A DNA stretch of 48,885 bases from a virus, in UHGV virus genome UHGV-0858861; one strand, 5' to 3'. Shown piece after piece: positions 14,601 through 43,154 of this stretch; the stretch's first letter is position 1; the number at the start of each line of letters is the position of its first letter. Made by a program: the position numbers and the translations under genes. A model generated the notes under the pieces. That model did not search any database, was not told where the DNA came from, and was given only the letters and a program-made list of their open reading frames with translations.

Positions 14601-15591
14601 AACGCTTTTTGATGTTATATATCAGAATGTAAATATTACCGCTTATATGTCACCTGATGTTTTGTCAATGTCTTATACAGATAATGAAGATGGTCAGGTC
14701 GATGATATTTCTATTATATTAAAAAATGATGATGGGAAATGGTCTGGAGACTGGACACCTAAAAAGGGTGATTTTATTGATTTGAGCTTTAAGCCTATAA
14801 ATCAAATCGTCCTTGAGTGCGGGAAATTCCAGGTAGATGGCATAACTTGCTCTGGACCACCTTCTGTTGTTGAGGTGACTGCTGTTTCTGTTCCTGTTTC
14901 ATCAGGCATTAGACGTGATTTAAAAAGTAATGCATGGGAAAAAACAACTCTTAAAGATATAGCAACTTCTATAGCTAAATTAGCTAACCTTGAACTGTTG
15001 TTTCTTATTGATGGTGATAGTAATCCATATTATGCGCGTGAAGATCAAATGGAGGAAAGCGATTTAAAATTTCTCCATCGACTTTGCCAGGATGAAGGGT
15101 TGTCGTTAAAGGTCACTGATAGCCAATTAATAATATTTGCTCAAGAGATGTTTGAGCAAAAAGATCCTATCGCTACGCTTACGTTAGGTATTGATGAGAT
15201 AATCAGATATAGCTTTAGCACACAATCTACAGATTTGTATAAAAGTTGCACGTGCAAATATCGCGTACCTAAAAAAAGAAAGTCGCTTTCGTATACTTGG
15301 GTAGATCCATCCGTAGAAGAAGGGTCGAATCTTAAGATAAGAAAACTGGTAGCTAATTTAAATGAAGCAAAACGTAAGGCAAAGGCTGCTTTGCGGCTTA
15401 AAAATAGATATCAAAATACAGGATCTTTAGTATTGGTTGGAGACACCAGATTGGTAGCTGGTGTAACTATAAATCTGGACGGATTCGGTTCATTTTCTGG
15501 AAAATATCTTATATCGAAAGCTGTGCATTCAATTGGGGCTAGTGGTTATACCACCTCGATTGATGTCCGAAGAGTAATTAATGGGTATTAA
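14590..15591 (+). CDS. tail protein D-like (late control D family)
   Basis: 333-aa ORF after the X-like gene, size and synteny of P2 gpD / Mu gpP-type proteins. Confidence 0.55.
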   Translation: MLRKTLFDVIYQNVNITAYMSPDVLSMSYTDNEDGQVDDISIILKNDDGKWSGDWTPKKGDFIDLSFKPINQIVLECGKFQVDGITCSGPPSVVEVTAVSVPVSSGIRRDLKSNAWEKTTLKDIATSIAKLANLELLFLIDGDSNPYYAREDQMEESDLKFLHRLCQDEGLSLKVTDSQLIIFAQEMFEQKDPIATLTLGIDEIIRYSFSTQSTDLYKSCTCKYRVPKKRKSLSYTWVDPSVEEGSNLKIRKLVANLNEAKRKAKAALRLKNRYQNTGSLVLVGDTRLVAGVTINLDGFGSFSGKYLISKAVHSIGASGYTTSIDVRRVINGY

Positions 15592-22034: not shown

Positions 22035-22595
22035 ATGCTCATGCTTATTGGCTATGTACGCGTGTCAACAAATGACCAGAACACGGAATTGCAGCGTAAC
22101 GCGCTGGAGTGCGCAGGATGTGAACTGATTTTTGAAGATAAAATCAGCGGAACGAAATCAGCCAGACCGGGATTGAAAAAACTGCTCAGAACGCTATCAG
22201 AAGGAGATACGCTGGTTGTCTGGAAGCTGGACCGAATGGGGCGTTCCCTGATTCATCTTGTTGATTTACTTAACCATTTTTTATCAAACAACATTGAGTT
22301 TATTTCGATTACGGAAGGGATAAAAATTAGCACTTCAATTGGCCGCTTTGCCTACACGATGCTGAGTGCAGTCGCAGAGATGGAGCGGGAAAATATGATT
22401 GAAAGAACGCGTGCAGGATTGGCGGTGGCAAGGGCTAACGGCAGGATAGGAGGACGCCGCTCAAAGCTGGCACCAGAGCAATGGGAACAGATCGGAAGAC
22501 TTATTGCGAATGGTGTTTCACGTAAGCGGATAGCGATTATCTTCGATGTTACCTTATCCACGCTTTACCGCAGGTTTCCGGCTGGGAATCATTGA
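22035..22595 (+). CDS. serine DNA invertase (Gin/Hin/Cin/Pin family)
   Basis: 186-aa ORF with the resolvase/invertase N-terminal catalytic region (IGYVRVSTNDQN...) and C-terminal HTH; adjacent to the inverted repeat; probable start at 22041. Confidence 0.85.
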   Translation: MLMLIGYVRVSTNDQNTELQRNALECAGCELIFEDKISGTKSARPGLKKLLRTLSEGDTLVVWKLDRMGRSLIHLVDLLNHFLSNNIEFISITEGIKISTSIGRFAYTMLSAVAEMERENMIERTRAGLAVARANGRIGGRRSKLAPEQWEQIGRLIANGVSRKRIAIIFDVTLSTLYRRFPAGNH

Positions 22596-22725
22596 CTGGA
22601 GTTAGGCCAGTAGTATGATGCTCGCAAAACGAGATCCAATTTAGATCCTTTTACTGGTGGATTATCGTTCGATCAGTGAGAGACTTCGTGCATGACCGAA
22701 AGTGTTGTGGTAGAGTTCTCTTAAA

Positions 22726-22740
22726 ACCACGTAACGTGGT
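22726..22740. promoter_or_regulatory. repressor-type operator ACCAC-N5-GTGGT upstream of repA
   Basis: Perfect dyad AACCACGTAACGTGGTT at 22725-22741; same half-sites as the operators in the cI/cro intergenic region. Confidence 0.5.
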
Positions 22741-22782
22741 TATGATTGTGGGTGTCTGGTTGGAAACTGACCAGATATGGAA

Positions 22783-22900
22783 ACAAAAAGCCCGCAGATA
22801 AATCTGCGGGCTTCTTGCGACATCCACGGAAAACCAACAACAACAATCCATGGGCGCCTCGACAACTCCCATTATACGTTGGTTTTCCGTGGACGCAAGA
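22783..22900 (-). ncRNA. candidate CopA-like antisense RNA / structured repA leader
   Basis: Upstream of the probable repA start: hairpin AAGCCCGCAG-ATAAAT-CTGCGGGCTT (22791-22816), which on the minus strand would be followed by a T-run, and 15-bp inverted repeat CCACGGAAAACCAAC / GTTGGTTTTCCGTGG (22825-22839 / 22879-22893). Confidence 0.3.
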
Positions 22901-22908
22901 GCGAACAT

Positions 22909-23757
22909 ATGGATAGACCAATGCCGTCTCTACGTTCCGCTTACGTTTGTAATTTGTCGCCGGAGTTCCAGCCTCCAAAGCACCATACGCACAAGCTGCC
23001 GCTAGTGTTATCTGATGCTTTACAGCGCATTAATGGTCGTGATCTTACGTGTGAGGTTGCGTTCTACGTTAATCAGCCGTCAGAGCGGAAGCGCCGGATA
23101 AACGAGCATCGTCGTCGGGCGATTAATGCTGTGATTGCTGCGATTTTGCACCATGTAAACATCATTTCTAAGCGGGTTCTGGCCAGTGCTGAGGCGTTGG
23201 CTGATTTTTGCGGCCTGTCTACCGTATCCGAAGCTGGGAACAAGTCTATAACACGCTGTACAAGGGCGTTGTCGCAACTGAAAGCGTTAGGTTTTATTGA
23301 TTATGAACGTCGCTGGGATCGGGTGAATAAACAGTATTGGCCAGCGAAAATAGAGATTCGTGATCAACTGCTGGAAACCGTTGGTATTACTGAACAAGCA
23401 TGGAGACGTGCGGTTAGCCAGAAACTTAATTACTTCAATGCGAAGAATAGCGAACGGCTTAAAAAAGCGATAACGGAGGCTGATTATAAGCGTATTGTTA
23501 TTCAGGAGCAGATGGAGAATGTATGGCGTCAGAGGAAGACAGCCAGAGAGATAAAGGCAAAACAGAAAGCAGCGGAGAGAGCTGCGCGTCTTGTTCAGGA
23601 AAAGGGAGAGGCCGAACTTCGTCATCAAATCACTAGAGAGGTTAGCCAGGAATTTGCTGATGGCATGTATCCTGGTGCTGACCTTGCATATTTACGATCC
23701 CTCGTTGAGCAGCGTTATAACAGGTTAAGAAAGACCAGGAAATCACTCCAACATTAA
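22909..23757 (+). CDS. repA: plasmid replication initiator RepA (IncFII RepA1-like)
   Basis: ORF (track 22777-23757; probable start ATG 22909 after the structured leader) with RepA1-like central motif (KSITRCTRALSQLKALGFIDYE) and basic C-terminus. Confidence 0.6.
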   Translation: MDRPMPSLRSAYVCNLSPEFQPPKHHTHKLPLVLSDALQRINGRDLTCEVAFYVNQPSERKRRINEHRRRAINAVIAAILHHVNIISKRVLASAEALADFCGLSTVSEAGNKSITRCTRALSQLKALGFIDYERRWDRVNKQYWPAKIEIRDQLLETVGITEQAWRRAVSQKLNYFNAKNSERLKKAITEADYKRIVIQEQMENVWRQRKTAREIKAKQKAAERAARLVQEKGEAELRHQITREVSQEFADGMYPGADLAYLRSLVEQRYNRLRKTRKSLQH

Positions 23758-23879
23758 CCCACCTGAATGATGAATCCGGTTTTACCGGAGGATTATCTAC
23801 GTCGCAATAAAATATCTGTTCAAAAAACAATCTAAATTAATTTTCTCTAAACCTGAACACAGCAAAAATATCGCCTTCA

Positions 23880-24180
23880 CAGGCATCGGCTAATAAAGTT
23901 ATCCACAGTTTTGATATGTATATGCAAATGGTTTTTTATAATAGATGCACTAAACAAATAAATGCAAAATCACTTTCTTTTATTAAGACTTTCTTTATTT
24001 AACTTACGCAGGCTTTGCCTGTGAATATGTTCGCCCTTGCAGCGAGCTAAAGCTCGCGCCGGTTCGAGTCGCTACGCTCAAATATACCTCCTCCGGCACT
24101 TGCCGGAGGCATGGAGCAGCCTGATCATCCTTTTCGAAACGGCACGTTTCGAACTATACAAAATCAATTTATATAAGGCC
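23880..24180. promoter_or_regulatory. candidate replication origin region (DnaA box, AT-rich stretch, hairpin cluster)
   Basis: Consensus DnaA box TTATCCACA at 23899-23907 followed by AT-rich DNA and four perfect hairpins (GCGAGC-TAAA-GCTCGC; CTCCGGCA-CT-TGCCGGAG; TTCGAAACG-GCA-CGTTTCGAA; AGGCC-N7-GGCCT). Confidence 0.35.
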
Positions 24181-24388
24181 GAAATAAGGCCTACGGCCGG
24201 GCTTTGCAGGAGGAAGGGGCGAGCCTTATCAATAAACGTCGATAAATACGCACACAGTAGCCATCAGAACGCGATAAAACGTAAGAAACATCATTTCCTA
24301 TTAGACATAGAAAACTTGTCTTATACGCAATGTAGTAAATTTCTATTGCCACATAGGAAAAGATTTCCTACCATCGTAGATATAATAA

Positions 24389-24688
24389 ATGGAGATGGTT
24401 ATGGATAAAGATACTGTTTTAAAAATGTTGAATCCGGCTTGTTTAAAAAAAGCGGATGAATGGGAATCTCCTACATGTGGAGAAGTTCGGGCAGTCATTG
24501 GCCTGACTGGAATGAGCGGCTCGCAGTTGGCCAAAAAACTAGGCTTAAAAGATAGTCGCAATGTTCGCAACTGGCAGATGTTAAAGGAGTCCACATCCAG
24601 ATCCAGCATTCCGTATGCAGCCTGGGCGCTGCTGTGTTACTTCGCTGGGTTAGGGTTAATCTTCATTGATAACAAAACAGATGTTTGA
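24389..24688 (+). CDS. HTH-domain protein (XRE/DUF1870-like)
   Basis: 99-aa ORF (probable start 24401 after a GGAG SD) with HTH-like segment (MSGSQLAKKLGLKDSRNVRNWQ). Confidence 0.4.
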   Translation: MEMVMDKDTVLKMLNPACLKKADEWESPTCGEVRAVIGLTGMSGSQLAKKLGLKDSRNVRNWQMLKESTSRSSIPYAAWALLCYFAGLGLIFIDNKTDV

Positions 24689-28026: not shown

Positions 28027-28053
28027 AAGCGCCCAAATCGGGCGCTTTGTTTT
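28027..28053. terminator. bidirectional terminator between convergent genes
   Basis: Hairpin GCGCCC-AAATC-GGGCGC flanked by A-rich and T-rich runs. Confidence 0.55.
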
Positions 28054-29194
28054 ATGGTTTTGCACCTGCGGCCAGTTTATCCGCAGATATCTTTATCAGT
28101 TCCTGTAGTGTCCTGGCTGGTAGGTTTGCATCCAGAACGCTGAGTATGCTGTTGTGATCCGCCTGGTCGACTACTTTGCCTGTCGGTGGTAGTAGCTTGA
28201 GCTGAGGATTCAGGTCCTCGTCAAAGCTGATAAGTGCTCTGGCGTTCCTGAGCAGATCAAGAAGTAAGGCTGATATCACATTTTCCTGAGTCATTGCTGG
28301 CAGATTTAGCGCCGCTTTGGTTTTCCCTGTTGCCTTGTCAAACTCCTTGATTAGTTCCTTCCTGTAGTTCGGTTCCGTTAATAGCCGATTATGCTCTGTT
28401 GCCGCGCGGATAATCGTTTTTTCCTGGTACAGTCGTTTAGCCAGATCTCGCTCGTACTGTGTTTTTAACACGCTGCTGATAGCGTTAAAGGCTTCAATGT
28501 AGGCCAGCTTGATATCCTTCACGCCTGGACCGTCGATACTTTCCATGAGCAAGGTAAATCCGTCTTTTGTCATGCGATATATTGTTATTTCGCGGTCGCT
28601 TCCTTCCAGCGGTCGTTGTTCTTTAAAGAAGTGACGCGCCGCAGCCGTGCGAGGAATGCGTAACGCATCGATGGCCATAACGATGGAATTGTTTGTGGTG
28701 CTGAATGCCTGAGCAACATCGGCTGAGGTTGTGAGTGGCTCGTTGTTGCACACCTTAATGTAAAACATCGGTTTGGCGTTGAGCGTATCGACAACCTCAC
28801 GAGCATTGTTTGGCGAGACGGTAACGGTCGCGGCCGTTTGCGCGTTCTGGTTGAAATAGCAGTCTTCCAGCCGTTCGAACACATCCCACGCTTGGTTAGT
28901 TTCAAGCATTTTGGCGTGACGTGCAGCCCCGCGTTCTGTCCAGAGAATTAGGGAGCGGGCATTTTTACCAACTAACCCGATTGTTTCGGGTCTGTTCTTG
29001 AACTCGCGTAATTCGTTTTTTTCAATTTTAAAGTAATGCTTTCCGGCTACGAATCGCGTCGTGTTGTTCAGAAAGTTATCAGAAATGTTTTTGATTTTTG
29101 TTCCGTATAACTGCGCCAGAAGTTCACTAGTGATAACGGGGATCTGGTTATGCAGGATAGGCTGTAGGGTGTTAACGGTCGGAAGCGTTTTCAT
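28052..29194 (-). CDS. antirepressor-like regulatory protein (ORF6N-like N-terminus + Rha-like domain)
   Basis: 380-aa ORF; architecture of phage antirepressor/Rha regulators; coupled to a small upstream ORF. Confidence 0.6.
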   Translation of the reverse strand: MKTLPTVNTLQPILHNQIPVITSELLAQLYGTKIKNISDNFLNNTTRFVAGKHYFKIEKNELREFKNRPETIGLVGKNARSLILWTERGAARHAKMLETNQAWDVFERLEDCYFNQNAQTAATVTVSPNNAREVVDTLNAKPMFYIKVCNNEPLTTSADVAQAFSTTNNSIVMAIDALRIPRTAAARHFFKEQRPLEGSDREITIYRMTKDGFTLLMESIDGPGVKDIKLAYIEAFNAISSVLKTQYERDLAKRLYQEKTIIRAATEHNRLLTEPNYRKELIKEFDKATGKTKAALNLPAMTQENVISALLLDLLRNARALISFDEDLNPQLKLLPPTGKVVDQADHNSILSVLDANLPARTLQELIKISADKLAAGAKP

Positions 29195-29382
29195 TTTGCA
29201 CCTCCCATAACTACTTTGGTTACGAGGGAGATTTTTGCGTCAGAAACAGCGTTATCGTTGCTGGCGATGCGCATAGCTTCGCGCTCGATGATTTCAGCCA
29301 GGCGTAATTTATCGGCGTATGAGGCTTTCTTGAGAAGGAGCTTTACGAGGTTGACGTAATAGTCATGGGGTAAGTTTGTCAT
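29191..29382 (-). CDS. small protein in icd-like position upstream of antirepressor
   Basis: 63-aa ORF whose stop overlaps the antirepressor start; SD AAGGGA upstream. Confidence 0.4.
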   Translation of the reverse strand: MTNLPHDYYVNLVKLLLKKASYADKLRLAEIIEREAMRIASNDNAVSDAKISLVTKVVMGGAK

Positions 29383-29439
29383 TGTGATGATTCCCTTAAA
29401 GGTTAAGGATACTCACCACCGTCAGGTTCCAATCATTGG

Positions 29440-29570
29440 GTGGTGAGACGTGCAGGGTTGGAACTACCGGACACAATGACGAACCGGCGAGTCTTACGAC
29501 TCCCCCGCACGCCCCACCATAATTTGGGGGTAGCAGTGCTTTACGCATAAAAAAACCGCTAACGCGGTAT
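29440..29570 (-). ncRNA. candidate c4-like antisense RNA region of an immI-like locus
   Basis: Minus-strand leader carries two hairpin-loop copies of GAUUGGAACC (29424-29433 and 29590-29599) flanking a segment with the complementary GGUAGUUCCAACC (29455-29470), plus a minus-strand terminator hairpin near 29550-29570. Confidence 0.3.
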
Positions 29571-29680
29571 GCGCCATTGTGTCTACGGGGTTCCAATCCC
29601 GGCCGTAGATTTTGCTACGGCTCGGAAAGTGTCCACCAATGGCGCATTCATGTCAATACGGCGGGATTTTAACAGACTAA

Positions 29681-29695
29681 ACCACATAGTGTGGG
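29681..29695. promoter_or_regulatory. repressor-type operator-like dyad upstream of the antirepressor operon
   Basis: ACCAC-ATAGT-GTGGG, one mismatch from the ACCAC-N5-GTGGT dyads near cI. Confidence 0.4.
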
Positions 29696-30418: not shown

Positions 30419-30744
30419 CGTGCTGATCGGATTCGCGGTCCTTTCAGCATAACGTCGTTGTACTAATACAACCACGCAAGCACAAACAGCAACTACATTC
30501 TTACCCAACTGAGGTGAATAGTCCACTATTCATATAAAAAAATTTAGCTCATTAGCTCATGCAAAATGAAGGTTTTTAACTTATTTACGTGTAATCTTAT
30601 GTAATAAAAGCGTTTTTTATTCCTTCATTATGAAGGGTATGACGTGTAATATGGCTTGGGGCCTTTCCGCCGATTCGCACCCGGGCACTGACTTTCAGGA
30701 AAGGATTATCCACTTGCCGTACCACGCAGGCACAAACAGCGTGC

Positions 30745-30927
30745 TTGCTCTCGCGTCATTTTCGTCGGTGGGGATGCCGTGAAACGGCCTGTAAGGGCCA
30801 CACAATGAAAAAATACTACATGTGTATTTTTATCGTTGTTACTGGAGCTTTGTTTACGCCACATGGGGAGGGTTGGAAGATTACTGATAACGCTCTGAAT
30901 GTGACGATAAACATTAGCAGCAAGTAG
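30745..30927 (+). CDS. small hydrophobic peptide (about 40 aa from the ATG at 30805)
   Basis: MKKYYMCIFIVVTGALFT... with one predicted TM helix, SD AAGGG upstream, strong terminator immediately downstream. Confidence 0.3.
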   Translation: MLSRHFRRWGCRETACKGHTMKKYYMCIFIVVTGALFTPHGEGWKITDNALNVTINISSK

Positions 30928-30932
30928 CGATT

Positions 30933-30956
30933 AGGCCCCTTCGGGGGCCTTTTTTA
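30933..30956 (+). terminator. strong rho-independent terminator
   Basis: Hairpin AGGCCCC-TTCG-GGGGCCT followed by TTTTTT. Confidence 0.7.
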
Positions 30957-32683: not shown

Positions 32684-32698
32684 ACCACAAAGCGTGGT
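32684..32698. promoter_or_regulatory. repressor-type operator-like dyad (or hairpin) between cI-like gene and the 124-aa gene
   Basis: AACCAC-AAAGC-GTGGTT followed by a T-run on the plus strand. Confidence 0.4.
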
Positions 32699-32740
32699 TT
32701 TTTTGAGCGTAGAAATGCACGGCTTTCGCCGTGCTGTGTA

Positions 32741-33397
32741 TCATAACCAGTTGACAACACTAACTACGCGGCCAAGAACTTTATAACGCTTAAATTCCTC
32801 GTTATTCAGATGCTTAGTGTTCATTTCAGCATCCCTTTCGGTTGACAGCATAACAGCATTGTCACCCGGTATGACTCTACAGTGCCTCAAAACAACCAGG
32901 CCATTTCTGTCTTCAAGGGCATAGATCCCCTCATGAATCTCTGTATCGTCTGTATCAATCAGGACTTGGGAGCCAGGGGATATTGTTGGTGACATTAACT
33001 CATCGTTGCTCTGGAGAACTGACAGAGACGATGGGTTGATGTTCTTGCTTCGTAGAATCTCCTGTTCTATCGCCAGCACTGGCTTTTCTCCGGCGTGCGA
33101 TGCTATGTCATTTTTTATAGCTACAAGCCCAGGAATAACAGGAGCGTTAGTATTCTGGGGTGGGAACGGGTTATCTGTTAAGCACGCGATATAAGGCGCT
33201 GATGCTTTCAGGGCGTGCGCGATTTTCTTGATGGCAGGTATAGATGGTTGTCTTAATCCGGCCTCATAGTTCTGCAAGGTGCTTAAGCCTATTCCAGTGA
33301 CTTGCTGGAGATCTCCGGCAGTCATGCCGGATTGTTTCCGTAGAGTCTGAATGCGCAGACCTATTTCTTTCTTGATGTTCTCGTCGTTGCTTTTCAT
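32741..33397 (-). CDS. CI-like repressor (N-terminal XRE HTH + C-terminal S24/LexA-like peptidase domain)
   Basis: 218-aa ORF; HTH (MTAGDLQQVTGIGLSTLQNYEAG) and C-terminal segment resembling the S24 autocleavage domain; divergent from a Cro-like gene. Confidence 0.7.
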   Translation of the reverse strand: MKSNDENIKKEIGLRIQTLRKQSGMTAGDLQQVTGIGLSTLQNYEAGLRQPSIPAIKKIAHALKASAPYIACLTDNPFPPQNTNAPVIPGLVAIKNDIASHAGEKPVLAIEQEILRSKNINPSSLSVLQSNDELMSPTISPGSQVLIDTDDTEIHEGIYALEDRNGLVVLRHCRVIPGDNAVMLSTERDAEMNTKHLNNEEFKRYKVLGRVVSVVNWL

Positions 33398-33433: not shown

Positions 33434-33552
33434 TACCACATTTAGTGGTTTTCACATGGTAAGACGAGAGGTGGACCACAAATAGAAGGTTATTTTTTGT
33501 TTCGCCCATTGAAAAACTCACGATGTGTGGTTTTAATACCACATATCGTGGT
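33434..33552. promoter_or_regulatory. operator cluster in the cI/cro-like divergent promoter region
   Basis: Dyads ACCAC-ATTTA-GTGGT (33434-33448), degenerate CTCAC-GATGT-GTGGT (33517-33531) and ACCAC-ATATC-GTGGT (33538-33552). Confidence 0.6.
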
Positions 33553-33571: not shown

Positions 33572-34066
33572 ATGACCTTTCAGGAGTGGGTTGACGAAAA
33601 TGGAGGCCAAATTGGTGTTGCCAGAAAGTTTGGCTTTACGTCATCACTGATTGGTGCCTGGTATCGCTTCGAGAGATTCCCTCGTGCGGATAACCTGACG
33701 CTGCTGGTGGCGTATTCGGAAGGCCGGATTAACGTCCAGCAATGGGCGGCAGATTTTGCCGAACGTCAGCGCCAGCGTAGCGATGGCACATCGGTTCGGC
33801 AGAACAAGATCAAAGGGAATCTCCCTGTTAACTGCTTATCAAGGCTGAAAGCGGTTTTCTCTGAGCTGGGGATGCCTGCGGAGCGTTGCAATCTACGCGG
33901 TCCGCGATTCATTGCTCGCTGGAAACACTCACACGTAACCGTTTCAGAGGTTCGTGATGCGATTGCCGTGCTGGAGCTTAAGAATAAAGATTCCAGCGAT
34001 ATCGAGCTGATTCATAAGGAGATTAGCAACGCCCGGCGTTCAGCACTTGGGAGGCTTGAGGAATGA
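33572..34066 (+). CDS. Cro/YdaS-like DNA-binding protein (first rightward gene)
   Basis: 164-aa ORF divergent from the repressor; N-terminal HTH-like segment (NGGQIGVARKFGFTSSLIGAWY). Confidence 0.45.
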   Translation: MTFQEWVDENGGQIGVARKFGFTSSLIGAWYRFERFPRADNLTLLVAYSEGRINVQQWAADFAERQRQRSDGTSVRQNKIKGNLPVNCLSRLKAVFSELGMPAERCNLRGPRFIARWKHSHVTVSEVRDAIAVLELKNKDSSDIELIHKEISNARRSALGRLEE

Positions 34067-43078: not shown

Positions 43079-43154
43079 GGCCCCTTAGCTCAGTGGTTAG
43101 AGCAGGCGACTCATAATCGCACGGTCATCGGTTCAAATCCGGTAGGGGCCACCA
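43079..43154 (+). tRNA. tRNA with CAU anticodon (elongator-type; ileX-like tRNA-Ile2 or tRNA-Met)
   Basis: 76-nt cloverleaf folded by hand: 7-bp acceptor stem (GGCCCCT/AGGGGCC), D-arm GCTCAGTGGTTAGAGC, anticodon loop CTCATAA, T-loop TTCAAAT, discriminator A and encoded CCA; 1:72 G-C pair excludes initiator type. Confidence 0.85.

Follow-up and report, generated by a model that had tools for sequence, protein, structure and literature searches.

Does the lysogeny repressor of a phage-plasmid also act on the gene for its plasmid replication initiator? The question is raised by a short inverted repeat upstream of repA in the stretch of viral DNA analysed here (UHGV-0858861, 48,885 bp; hereafter, the window). 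A previous reading made from the letters of the DNA (the sequence-only reading) had taken this dyad for a repressor operator and had proposed that the repressor controls the initiator as in the N15 prophage-plasmid, thereby tying copy control to the lysis-lysogeny switch. Here, we find that reading partly supported: its direction appears to be right, its geometry was wrong, and it missed an antisense layer that lies between the dyad and repA.

The phage-plasmid family and its copy control

The window is a member of p-p47, a family of ~48-kb E. coli phage-plasmids (bioRxiv 10.64898/2026.08.19.745698). Its repA region is 99.7–99.9% identical to circular E. coli plasmids of ~48 kb, including that of ATCC 25922, which serves as a quality-control standard, and 97% identical to three 'Yersinia phages' of ~49 kb; a literature search turned up nothing on vB_YpM_39, 41 and 44, which are related Yersinia phages. 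The gene set of the family comprises myovirus structural genes, a Hin-type invertase, a RelE/HigA-type toxin-antitoxin pair, ParA and an IncFII-family RepA, and the annotations of close relatives show no second replication initiator and no helicase or primase. The window also holds a module resembling immI of P1 and P7, with a C4 RNA (77.8 bits), an isrK (70 bits) and a gene for an ORF6N/Rha antirepressor. Among complete E. coli genomes, 71 of 5,426 (~1.3%) carried the 81-bp segment that surrounds the dyad, and all of these copies were plasmid-borne and at least 95% identical.

The preprint that names the family (August 2026) counts 118 members, shows phage-mediated transfer, and links p-p47 to piperacillin-tazobactam heteroresistance via an increase in copy number (bioRxiv 10.64898/2026.08.19.745698). 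Of its 15 copy-up mutants, 14 are altered at 58–86 nt before repA, within a predicted CopA/CopT antisense pair that is presented there as the main copy controller, and in the remaining one (DA81419) the SNP falls in a 'potential transcriptional regulator' that is not named. The amount of repA transcript had not changed in any of three copy-up mutants in which it was followed; neither mitomycin C nor ciprofloxacin led to induction (bioRxiv 10.64898/2026.08.19.745698). Three clinical p-p49 phage-plasmids belonging to the family have reported copy numbers of 1.2–2.6. The words 'repressor', 'operator' and 'CopB' have zero occurrences in its text, which likewise makes no mention of another repA promoter, of an operator for the repressor or of repA being controlled by CI (bioRxiv 10.64898/2026.08.19.745698). 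The copy-up SNP of DA81419, which lies outside CopA, might reflect repressor input to repA.

The plasmid pCREC-544_3 (NZ_CP024829), a natural deletion derivative of 32 kb lacking the counterpart of 29.7–47.8 kb of the window (cI, the rightward early genes and par), is maintained and has kept repA together with an intact dyad. Because this plasmid replicates without cI, CI is unnecessary for replication and can exert at most auxiliary control; the persistence of pCREC-544_3 is indeed what would be expected of a negative, auxiliary regulator. The idea that the repressor governs copy number has to be weakened in this light, given both the maintenance of a cI-less derivative and the preponderance of CopA/CopT changes among the copy-up mutants.

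An immunity-type dyad between hin and repA

The dyad AACCACGTAACGTGGTT is a perfect 17-bp inverted repeat located, as had been claimed, exactly at 22725–22741, its arms AACCACG and CGTGGTT being separated by TAA. Its 10-base core, ACCAC-N5-GTGGT, is found without mismatch at four places in the 48,885 bp, which start at 22726, 32684, 33435 and 33538. Against this stands an expected count of 0.01, the mean of 100 dinucleotide-preserving shuffles of the full window, none of which (0/100) gave four matches. Both the half-site sequence and the spacing of the copy upstream of repA (22726) are those of the immunity-region sites. Judging from this match, the dyad is probably an operator of the CI-like repressor, and it belongs to the same motif family as the intergenic sites between cI and the first PR gene.

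The immunity cluster occupies the 174-bp region between cI, on the minus strand, and the first rightward gene (33572–34066). A promoter-like PR is formed there by TTGAAA (33509–33514), a 17-nt spacer and TTTAAT (33532–33537). Of the predicted operators between 33435 and 33552, CTCACGATGTGTGGT (33517–33531, two mismatches) falls within the spacer of this likely PR, ACCACATATCGTGGT (33538–33552) directly follows its −10 on the 3′ side, and ACCACATTTAGTGGT (33435–33449), the one nearest to cI, falls within the spacer of the likely cI promoter. These are the dyads that the sequence-only reading had noticed between the CI-like and Cro-like genes: the one at 33538 proved exact, that at 33517 departs from the consensus as just given, and its position 33434 differs from our 33435 by a flanking base. 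The related sites that it had reported further afield also exist. One, an exact match at 32684–32698, is a flanking operator candidate beyond the cI terminator hairpin (32717–32734) and ahead of the orf124-parA operon. The other, ACCACATAGTGTGGG (29681–29695), has one mismatch and is flanked by the isrK/C4/ant operon on one side and by a divergent HTH gene on the other; it is retained in the E. coli members, and Salmonella pAR-0407-1 has no equivalent. Further one-mismatch matches at 14856 (inside a coding region), 18886 and 46066 were treated as chance, since their count fits the ~1.4 such matches that a rough estimate predicts for the window.

Upstream of repA, the dyad is embedded in an array of regulatory elements. 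Just past the stop codon of hin (22595, plus strand), we found a promoter-like element on the same strand, P1 (TTGACT-16-TATGAT, 22592–22619), with 10 of 12 matches in a two-hexamer scan, and its −35 and −10 are kept in the Salmonella and Serratia relatives. P1 is probably the constitutive upstream promoter of repA and, by analogy, the counterpart of PcopB in plasmid R1. Two GATC sites placed 11 bp apart (22633–22636 and 22644–22647) follow between P1 and P2, and GATC is paired or tripled at this position in all lineages aligned. P2 itself is an extended −10 element, TGGTAGAGT (TGnTAGAGT, of the TGnTAnnnT type; plus strand, 22708–22716), that is invariant across five aligned lineages. It would be the −10 of a second repA promoter starting near 22723, the counterpart of R1 PrepA. 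As the two-hexamer scan found P1 only, we infer the promoter status of P2 from its extended −10 and its conservation. The dyad starts 10 nt after the −10 hexamer within TGnTAGAGT, and would thus cover approximately +4 to +18 of a transcript from P2. TATGAT at 22741–22746 was considered as the −10 of P2 and rejected, the relatives having TATGAA, TAAGTA, TTTGGT and TACGAT in its place. The gap of ~85 nt between P1 and P2 contains no plus-strand ORF of at least 50 aa, and hence no copB.

The initiator gene begins further downstream than had been thought. We place repA at 22921–23757 on the plus strand, encoding a 278-aa protein of the IncFII family (Pfam PF02387, IncFII_repA: E = 1.3 × 10−43, 149.9 bits), with an in-frame ATG at 22909 as another possible start. 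The N-terminus common to the lineages, MP(S/L)LRSAYV (MPSLRSAYV here), begins at ATG 22921, and the longer ORF from ATG 22777, which PGAP annotates in relatives, crosses the terminator of the antisense RNA. Since the conserved start is 22921 and not 22777, ~188 nt separate the centre of the dyad from repA downstream; the description of the dyad as immediately upstream of the gene would hold only for ATG 22777.

The intervening region, which separates the dyad from the repA start, is predicted to encode a CopA-like antisense RNA on the minus strand (22782–22898), with a stem-loop at 22820–22896 and an intrinsic terminator at 22783–22818 that ends in a U-run. The minus strand of 22778–22900 has a minimum free energy of −68 kcal/mol (z = −9.06 relative to shuffles), terminal hairpin and U-run included. 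An Rfam search of this element returned generic terminator-type matches only, with no copy-control family above threshold, so its relationship to CopA is one of structural analogy and not of model membership.

Conservation of the site and its candidate binders

To what extent the dyad is a property of the replicon can be judged from diverged relatives. The comparison included Salmonella pAR-0407-1 (RepA 86% and CI 65% identical), a second Salmonella-type lineage (RepA 80%), Serratia pJSRIV006_2 (RepA ~32%, CI 34%, with siphovirus-type tail genes), S. marcescens YL4 p2, and two further metagenomic Serratia-type contigs. In the alignment of the sequence upstream of repA, conserved islands stand out from an otherwise diverged background, and these are P1, the GATC pair, TGnTAGAGT, GTGGTT, the terminator and a loop segment, CGCCTCGACAACTCC. 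TGnTAGAGT and GTGGTT are separated by an invariant 19 nt in the E. coli, the two Salmonella-type and three Serratia-type lineages, with the exception of one metagenomic Serratia-type contig that has a 2-nt insertion between TAGAGT and GTGGTT. This register holds even though RepA drops to ~32% and CI to 34% identity.

Within the dyad, the two kinds of positions behave differently. Both arms are intact in the E. coli and Salmonella-type lineages, around a spacer that reads GTAAC, GTTGT or GATGT. Serratia lineages have degenerate forms of the left arm (GGCCC, ACCCC), so that the right half-site alone remains in them. The site after cI likewise has invariant arms and four different spacers among the relatives. 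When six sites were pooled, 16 of 30 spacer columns varied compared with 2 of 60 arm columns (Fisher, P = 7 × 10−8), and at the repA site the corresponding counts were 4/5 and 0/10 (P = 0.004). These counts indicate purifying selection on the arms of the repA site, with the spacer drifting.

The site accompanies the rep module in every lineage examined, despite different neighbours, namely hin in E. coli and Salmonella, and a tail-fibre gene or DUF4236 in Serratia. No relative combining this replicon with a different repressor specificity was found in PLSDB, IMG/VR, GTDB genomes or metagenomes, and the GTDB genome search returned nothing related. More distant RepA proteins are encoded by Klebsiella p09A18011_A_KPC (37%) and Serratia pE36_3 (~33% over a partial match), both conjugative-type plasmids that have no CI module, no TGnTAGAGT upstream of repA and no dyad, and that serve at best as a weak negative control.

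Which protein, then, would recognise the site? The predicted binder is the 218-aa CI-like repressor encoded at 32741–33397 (minus strand), which matches HTH_3 (4.5 × 10−11) and the transcriptional repressors of phrog_4 (1.8 × 10−27). Its match to Peptidase_S24 reaches 20 bits, under the 23.3-bit cut-off, and neither BLASTP against E. coli LexA nor a PDB search gave a usable alignment by which to place the catalytic Ser/Lys of a LexA-like domain in CI. Apart from CI, the only DNA-binding candidates present in all four complete lineages are a 164-aa and a 171-aa protein; neither the Salmonella nor the Serratia lineages have the 209-aa HTH protein whose gene adjoins the 29681 site, and Serratia also lacks HigA and a 101-aa HTH protein. 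All lineages have the same segment, STLQNYE(A/S)G, in the recognition helix of CI, in keeping with their common half-site GTGGT. The 164-aa and 171-aa proteins are the first two gene products of PR and belong to PHROG families of unknown function, and neither has a Pfam match even at E = 10. A single-sequence AlphaFold2 model of the 164-aa protein was unusable (pLDDT 49). The gene that had been labelled Cro-like thus shows no detectable HTH family match, and for the 164-aa protein the label is a positional one only.

What finds support in the proposed link between repressor and repA is the shared motif family, the selection on the arms, the linkage to the rep module and the presence of CI in all lineages that keep the site; binding by CI is predicted. 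Our leading interpretation, to which we assign a somewhat better than even chance, is that the dyad is an operator for CI, or for CI together with a lytic repressor, placed at the start of a regulated promoter, P2.

Alternative readings and parallels in known circuits

Several other explanations for the dyad should be considered. Lambdoid CI and Cro proteins act on common operators, and the two PR products are found in all lineages with the site, the 164-aa protein moreover sitting at the position of cro. One of them might be the binder, the 164-aa protein as a Cro-type lytic repressor or else the 171-aa protein, in which case repA would be shut in lytic growth and not in lysogeny. We consider this rather unlikely, since neither protein has a Pfam match and the model of the 164-aa protein was unusable, since phiKO2 Cro binds OR3 only and not the repA operators (PMC4997575), and since a phage would hardly be expected to turn off its one recognisable initiator in lytic growth. 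A purely architectural role for CI is improbable as well. Here, CI would bind at repA to form a loop to the immunity region ~10.7 kb away, or to pair plasmid copies, with little effect on repA itself. The flanking operator at 32684 already hints at looping around cI, and OL-OR cooperativity over long distances, known from lambda, has been raised for phiKO2 (PMC4997575), but the strict 19-nt register between TGnTAGAGT and GTGGTT indicates a local promoter relationship, and the site moves with the rep module while the neighbouring genes change.

It is also conceivable that the dyad works as RNA and not as DNA, forming a hairpin in the P1 transcript or at the end of the hin transcript that affects stability or termination, with the repressor not involved. 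The E. coli dyad does fold as a 7-bp hairpin of about −8 kcal/mol. There is, however, no U-run after it and the terminator scan calls none, for which reason an intrinsic terminator was rejected; P1 intervenes between hin and the dyad, and the same motif clusters at the immunity promoters. The Serratia lineages, furthermore, have lost the hairpin and retained GTGGTT, and this, with the pattern of constant arms and variable spacer, favours a dimeric DNA-binding protein over an RNA hairpin, leaving the RNA reading highly improbable. Many plasmid initiators repress their own promoters, which raises the possibility that the dyad is an autoregulatory site of RepA, or a site for a host factor, with its likeness to the immunity operators being coincidental. 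IncFII RepA is not known to regulate its own transcription. The half-site is absent from the ori region downstream of repA (23700–24450), on which ground a RepA binding site was rejected, and the 10-base motif has two extra exact matches, both in regulatory intergenic regions, at a chance expectation of 0.01. We find this last explanation barely credible. A hix/gix site for Hin was likewise rejected: the spacing of the half-sites is wrong, the dyad lies downstream of hin and not at the borders of the invertible segment, and Serratia keeps the site without hin.

Returning to CI as the binder, the closest functional precedent is that of N15 and phiKO2, in which the OL operators bound by CB overlap the promoter of repA, and CB represses repA and reduces copy number (PMC4997575). 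The precedent that had been invoked is thus real. As in those phages, a phage-plasmid here has operators both at the switch between cI (cB) and cro and at the promoter of the initiator, with binding being predicted in the present case. CI lacks a convincing self-cleavage module, as CB of the N15 group reportedly does, and an antirepressor is present. The differences are nevertheless considerable. The RepA of N15, a linear telomere phage, is large, multifunctional and of a different kind, and the OL of this phage consists of two 16-bp operators of the form T-A-N10-T-A directly between cB and repA, whereas the window has an IncFII-type repA 10.7 kb from cI, a single dyad of another sequence, and an antisense layer between dyad and gene.

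Phage P1 offers a further parallel, being a plasmid prophage in which one repressor serves operators scattered over the genome, and having an immI (c4-icd-ant) region that the C4 RNA and antirepressor operon of the window resemble. The operators of P1 are 17-mers without symmetry, and C1 regulates repL of the lytic replicon and not the plasmid repA. Unlike C1, the protein of the window is an HTH_3 repressor of the CI type, and its predicted site is a symmetric dyad.

The layout of the region, on the other hand, recalls plasmids R1 and NR1. In R1, repA is transcribed from the constitutive PcopB and from a stronger downstream promoter, PrepA, which CopB holds ~90% repressed, and the antisense RNA CopA controls translation (PMC5717011). 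The order in R1/NR1 is PcopB, copB, PrepA with the CopB operator, copA/CopT, tap and repA (PMC5717011). The window has in common with them the Pfam family of RepA, an antisense RNA that is complementary to the repA leader immediately 5′ of the gene, and two tandem promoter-like elements with the dyad at the downstream one. By this analogy, the role of the site would be auxiliary, repA being derepressed when the level of repressor is low or during establishment. In contrast to R1/NR1, copB is absent and the dyad matches phage immunity operators; RepA reaches only ~30–40% identity with classical IncFII RepA, in an alignment that covers part of the protein, the antisense RNA matches no copy-control RNA of Rfam, and a tap-like leader peptide is not consistently identifiable.

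Combining these parallels, a circuit can be sketched in which the primary control of copy number would be exerted by the CopA-like RNA on the repA leader (22782–22898), with P1 supplying basal repA mRNA constitutively. CI would act in the role of CopB, as the phage immunity operator occupies the P2 position that CopB holds in R1. In a lysogen, a CI dimer bound at approximately +4 to +18 would keep P2 shut and perhaps stop some of the transcription that reads through from P1. On entry into a new host cell, where CI is absent, P2 would open, the supply of RepA would rise, and establishment would be helped. A similar rise would follow upon inactivation of CI at induction, which probably runs through the antirepressor, with Ant as the likely agent. 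Since RepA is the only recognisable initiator on the element, it would serve establishment and lytic replication as well. P1 lies upstream of the operator, and it could therefore be that repA is transcribed mainly from P1 and that CI is merely a weak roadblock. On our best reading by analogy, the outcome would be the same as that of CB at N15 repA, with CI being auxiliary rather than essential.

A more far-reaching version, which we put forward tentatively and hold to be possible but not probable, is that the transcriptional arm of an IncFII-type copy-control circuit has passed from CopB to the lysogeny repressor, which would set at once immunity and a ceiling on the supply of RepA, so that loss of CI, upon infection or once the antirepressor has acted, would turn a low-copy theta replicon into an engine of lytic growth or establishment. 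The principle would be the one known from N15 and the circuit layout that of R1; a phage CI in the place of CopB would be new for the p-p47 family. If this is true, N15-type logic arose independently on an IncFII-type replicon, with a phage operator at the usual place of CopB. Repressor input to repA would then represent a second testable lever on copy number, and repressor alleles a second genetic route to copy-number-driven β-lactam heteroresistance.

The repA leader has features of its own. A GTG-initiated ORF has its start inside the CopT stem in E. coli (22889) and in Serratia, with differing length and stop, and none is listed in Salmonella. Between the dyad and the antisense-RNA region, the plus strand forms a predicted hairpin at 22752–22778 that shows compensatory changes and recurs at the same place in E. 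coli, both Salmonella-type lineages and the Serratia lineages, despite differing stem sequences.

Copy-control loop and start of repA

Within the stem-loop of the CopA/CopT pair (the antisense RNA and its target in the repA leader), the loop-side segment, AACAACAACAATCC in the window (22838-22850), is variable among otherwise near-identical members of the p-p47 family. Across the members compared (L003, L088, L090, L091, L093 and L094), we found AACAACTAACC, AACAATTAACC, AACAAACATATCC, a GGA insertion and other forms at this position. A preprint on the family placed copy-up mutations 58-86 nt upstream of repA (bioRxiv 10.64898/2026.08.19.745698), an interval that corresponds, depending on the choice of repA start codon, to window 22823-22863 and includes the variable segment. 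These loop differences may reflect natural variation in copy number or incompatibility.

The long repA ORF, with the PGAP start of relatives at 22777, passes through the terminator hairpin of the antisense RNA. The N-terminus kept across lineages begins at ATG 22921, so the start given in databases is probably set about 48 codons too far upstream. Just 5' of the antisense terminator, we noticed a hairpin in the repA leader (22752-22778), whose stems differ in sequence among the Salmonella lineage, the second Salmonella-type lineage (L009) and the Serratia lineage, with pairing kept by compensatory changes.

Upstream GATC motifs and related replicons

Two GATC motifs, 11 bp apart, are located between the inferred repA promoters P1 and P2 (22633-22647). 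Two or three copies occur at this position in all lineages, as far as Serratia, and the first of the pair is missing in one metagenomic member, L094. We speculate that the pair could provide Dam/SeqA-linked control over repA transcription in the period after replication.

pCREC-544_3 (NZ_CP024829.1), a circular derivative of 32 kb, is a natural replicon without cI. It lacks the region equivalent to window 29.7-47.8 kb, and with it cI, the 164-aa and 171-aa genes that come first in the rightward direction beyond cI, par, the early genes and the lysis genes; repA, the dyad upstream of repA and the structural genes are retained. In a Serratia-type metagenomic relative (RCUM01000659.1, 3484-4832, reverse-complement orientation), a partial repA is directly followed by a full one. 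More distantly, the conjugative-type Klebsiella plasmid p09A18011_A_KPC encodes a RepA that is 37% identical. In the region upstream of repA, this plasmid too has clustered GATC motifs and an ACCAC-N8-GTGGT dyad, placed before its antisense-terminator region, with a 79-aa ORF further upstream.

The CI-like repressor and the partition genes

The exact operator at 32684 comes after the terminator-like hairpin of cI (32717-32734) and before a 124-aa gene of unassigned function, parA and an 82-aa gene. The partition operon may also be under CI control, or this site may loop to those across cI.

CI itself (32741-33397) matched the S24 peptidase family at 20 bits, below the Pfam cut-off of 23.3, and gave no usable alignment with E. 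coli LexA (BLASTP) or, in a PDB search, with solved structures. According to the preprint on the family (bioRxiv 10.64898/2026.08.19.745698), neither mitomycin C nor ciprofloxacin gave induction. Self-cleavage of CI may be absent.

Antirepressor module and other features

A P1/P7 immI-like module occupies 28052-29621 on the minus strand, where it comprises an isrK-like RNA (29549-29621, 70 bits), a C4 antisense RNA (29436-29524, 77.8 bits), a 63-aa ORF (29191-29382) and an ORF6N/Rha antirepressor gene (28052-29194). The isrK promoter-like element is not overlapped by the CI-type site at 29681, which has one mismatch and is found 26 bp upstream of the element's TTGACA. The ryfA RNA family is matched over its full length at 30657-30955 (plus strand; 134.6 bits against a gathering score of 80), in the stretch that separates the partition genes from the antirepressor region.

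Exact copies of ACCACCTTCTGTGGT are present in L005 and L006 (at 1547) and L007 (at 2261), which are members of the family, at a position equivalent to window 14856, where the window itself has one mismatch and the site falls inside the baseplate V gene. The match at this position probably reflects chance or coding constraint. The late region also carries a tRNA-Met (CAT) gene (43079-43154, plus strand).
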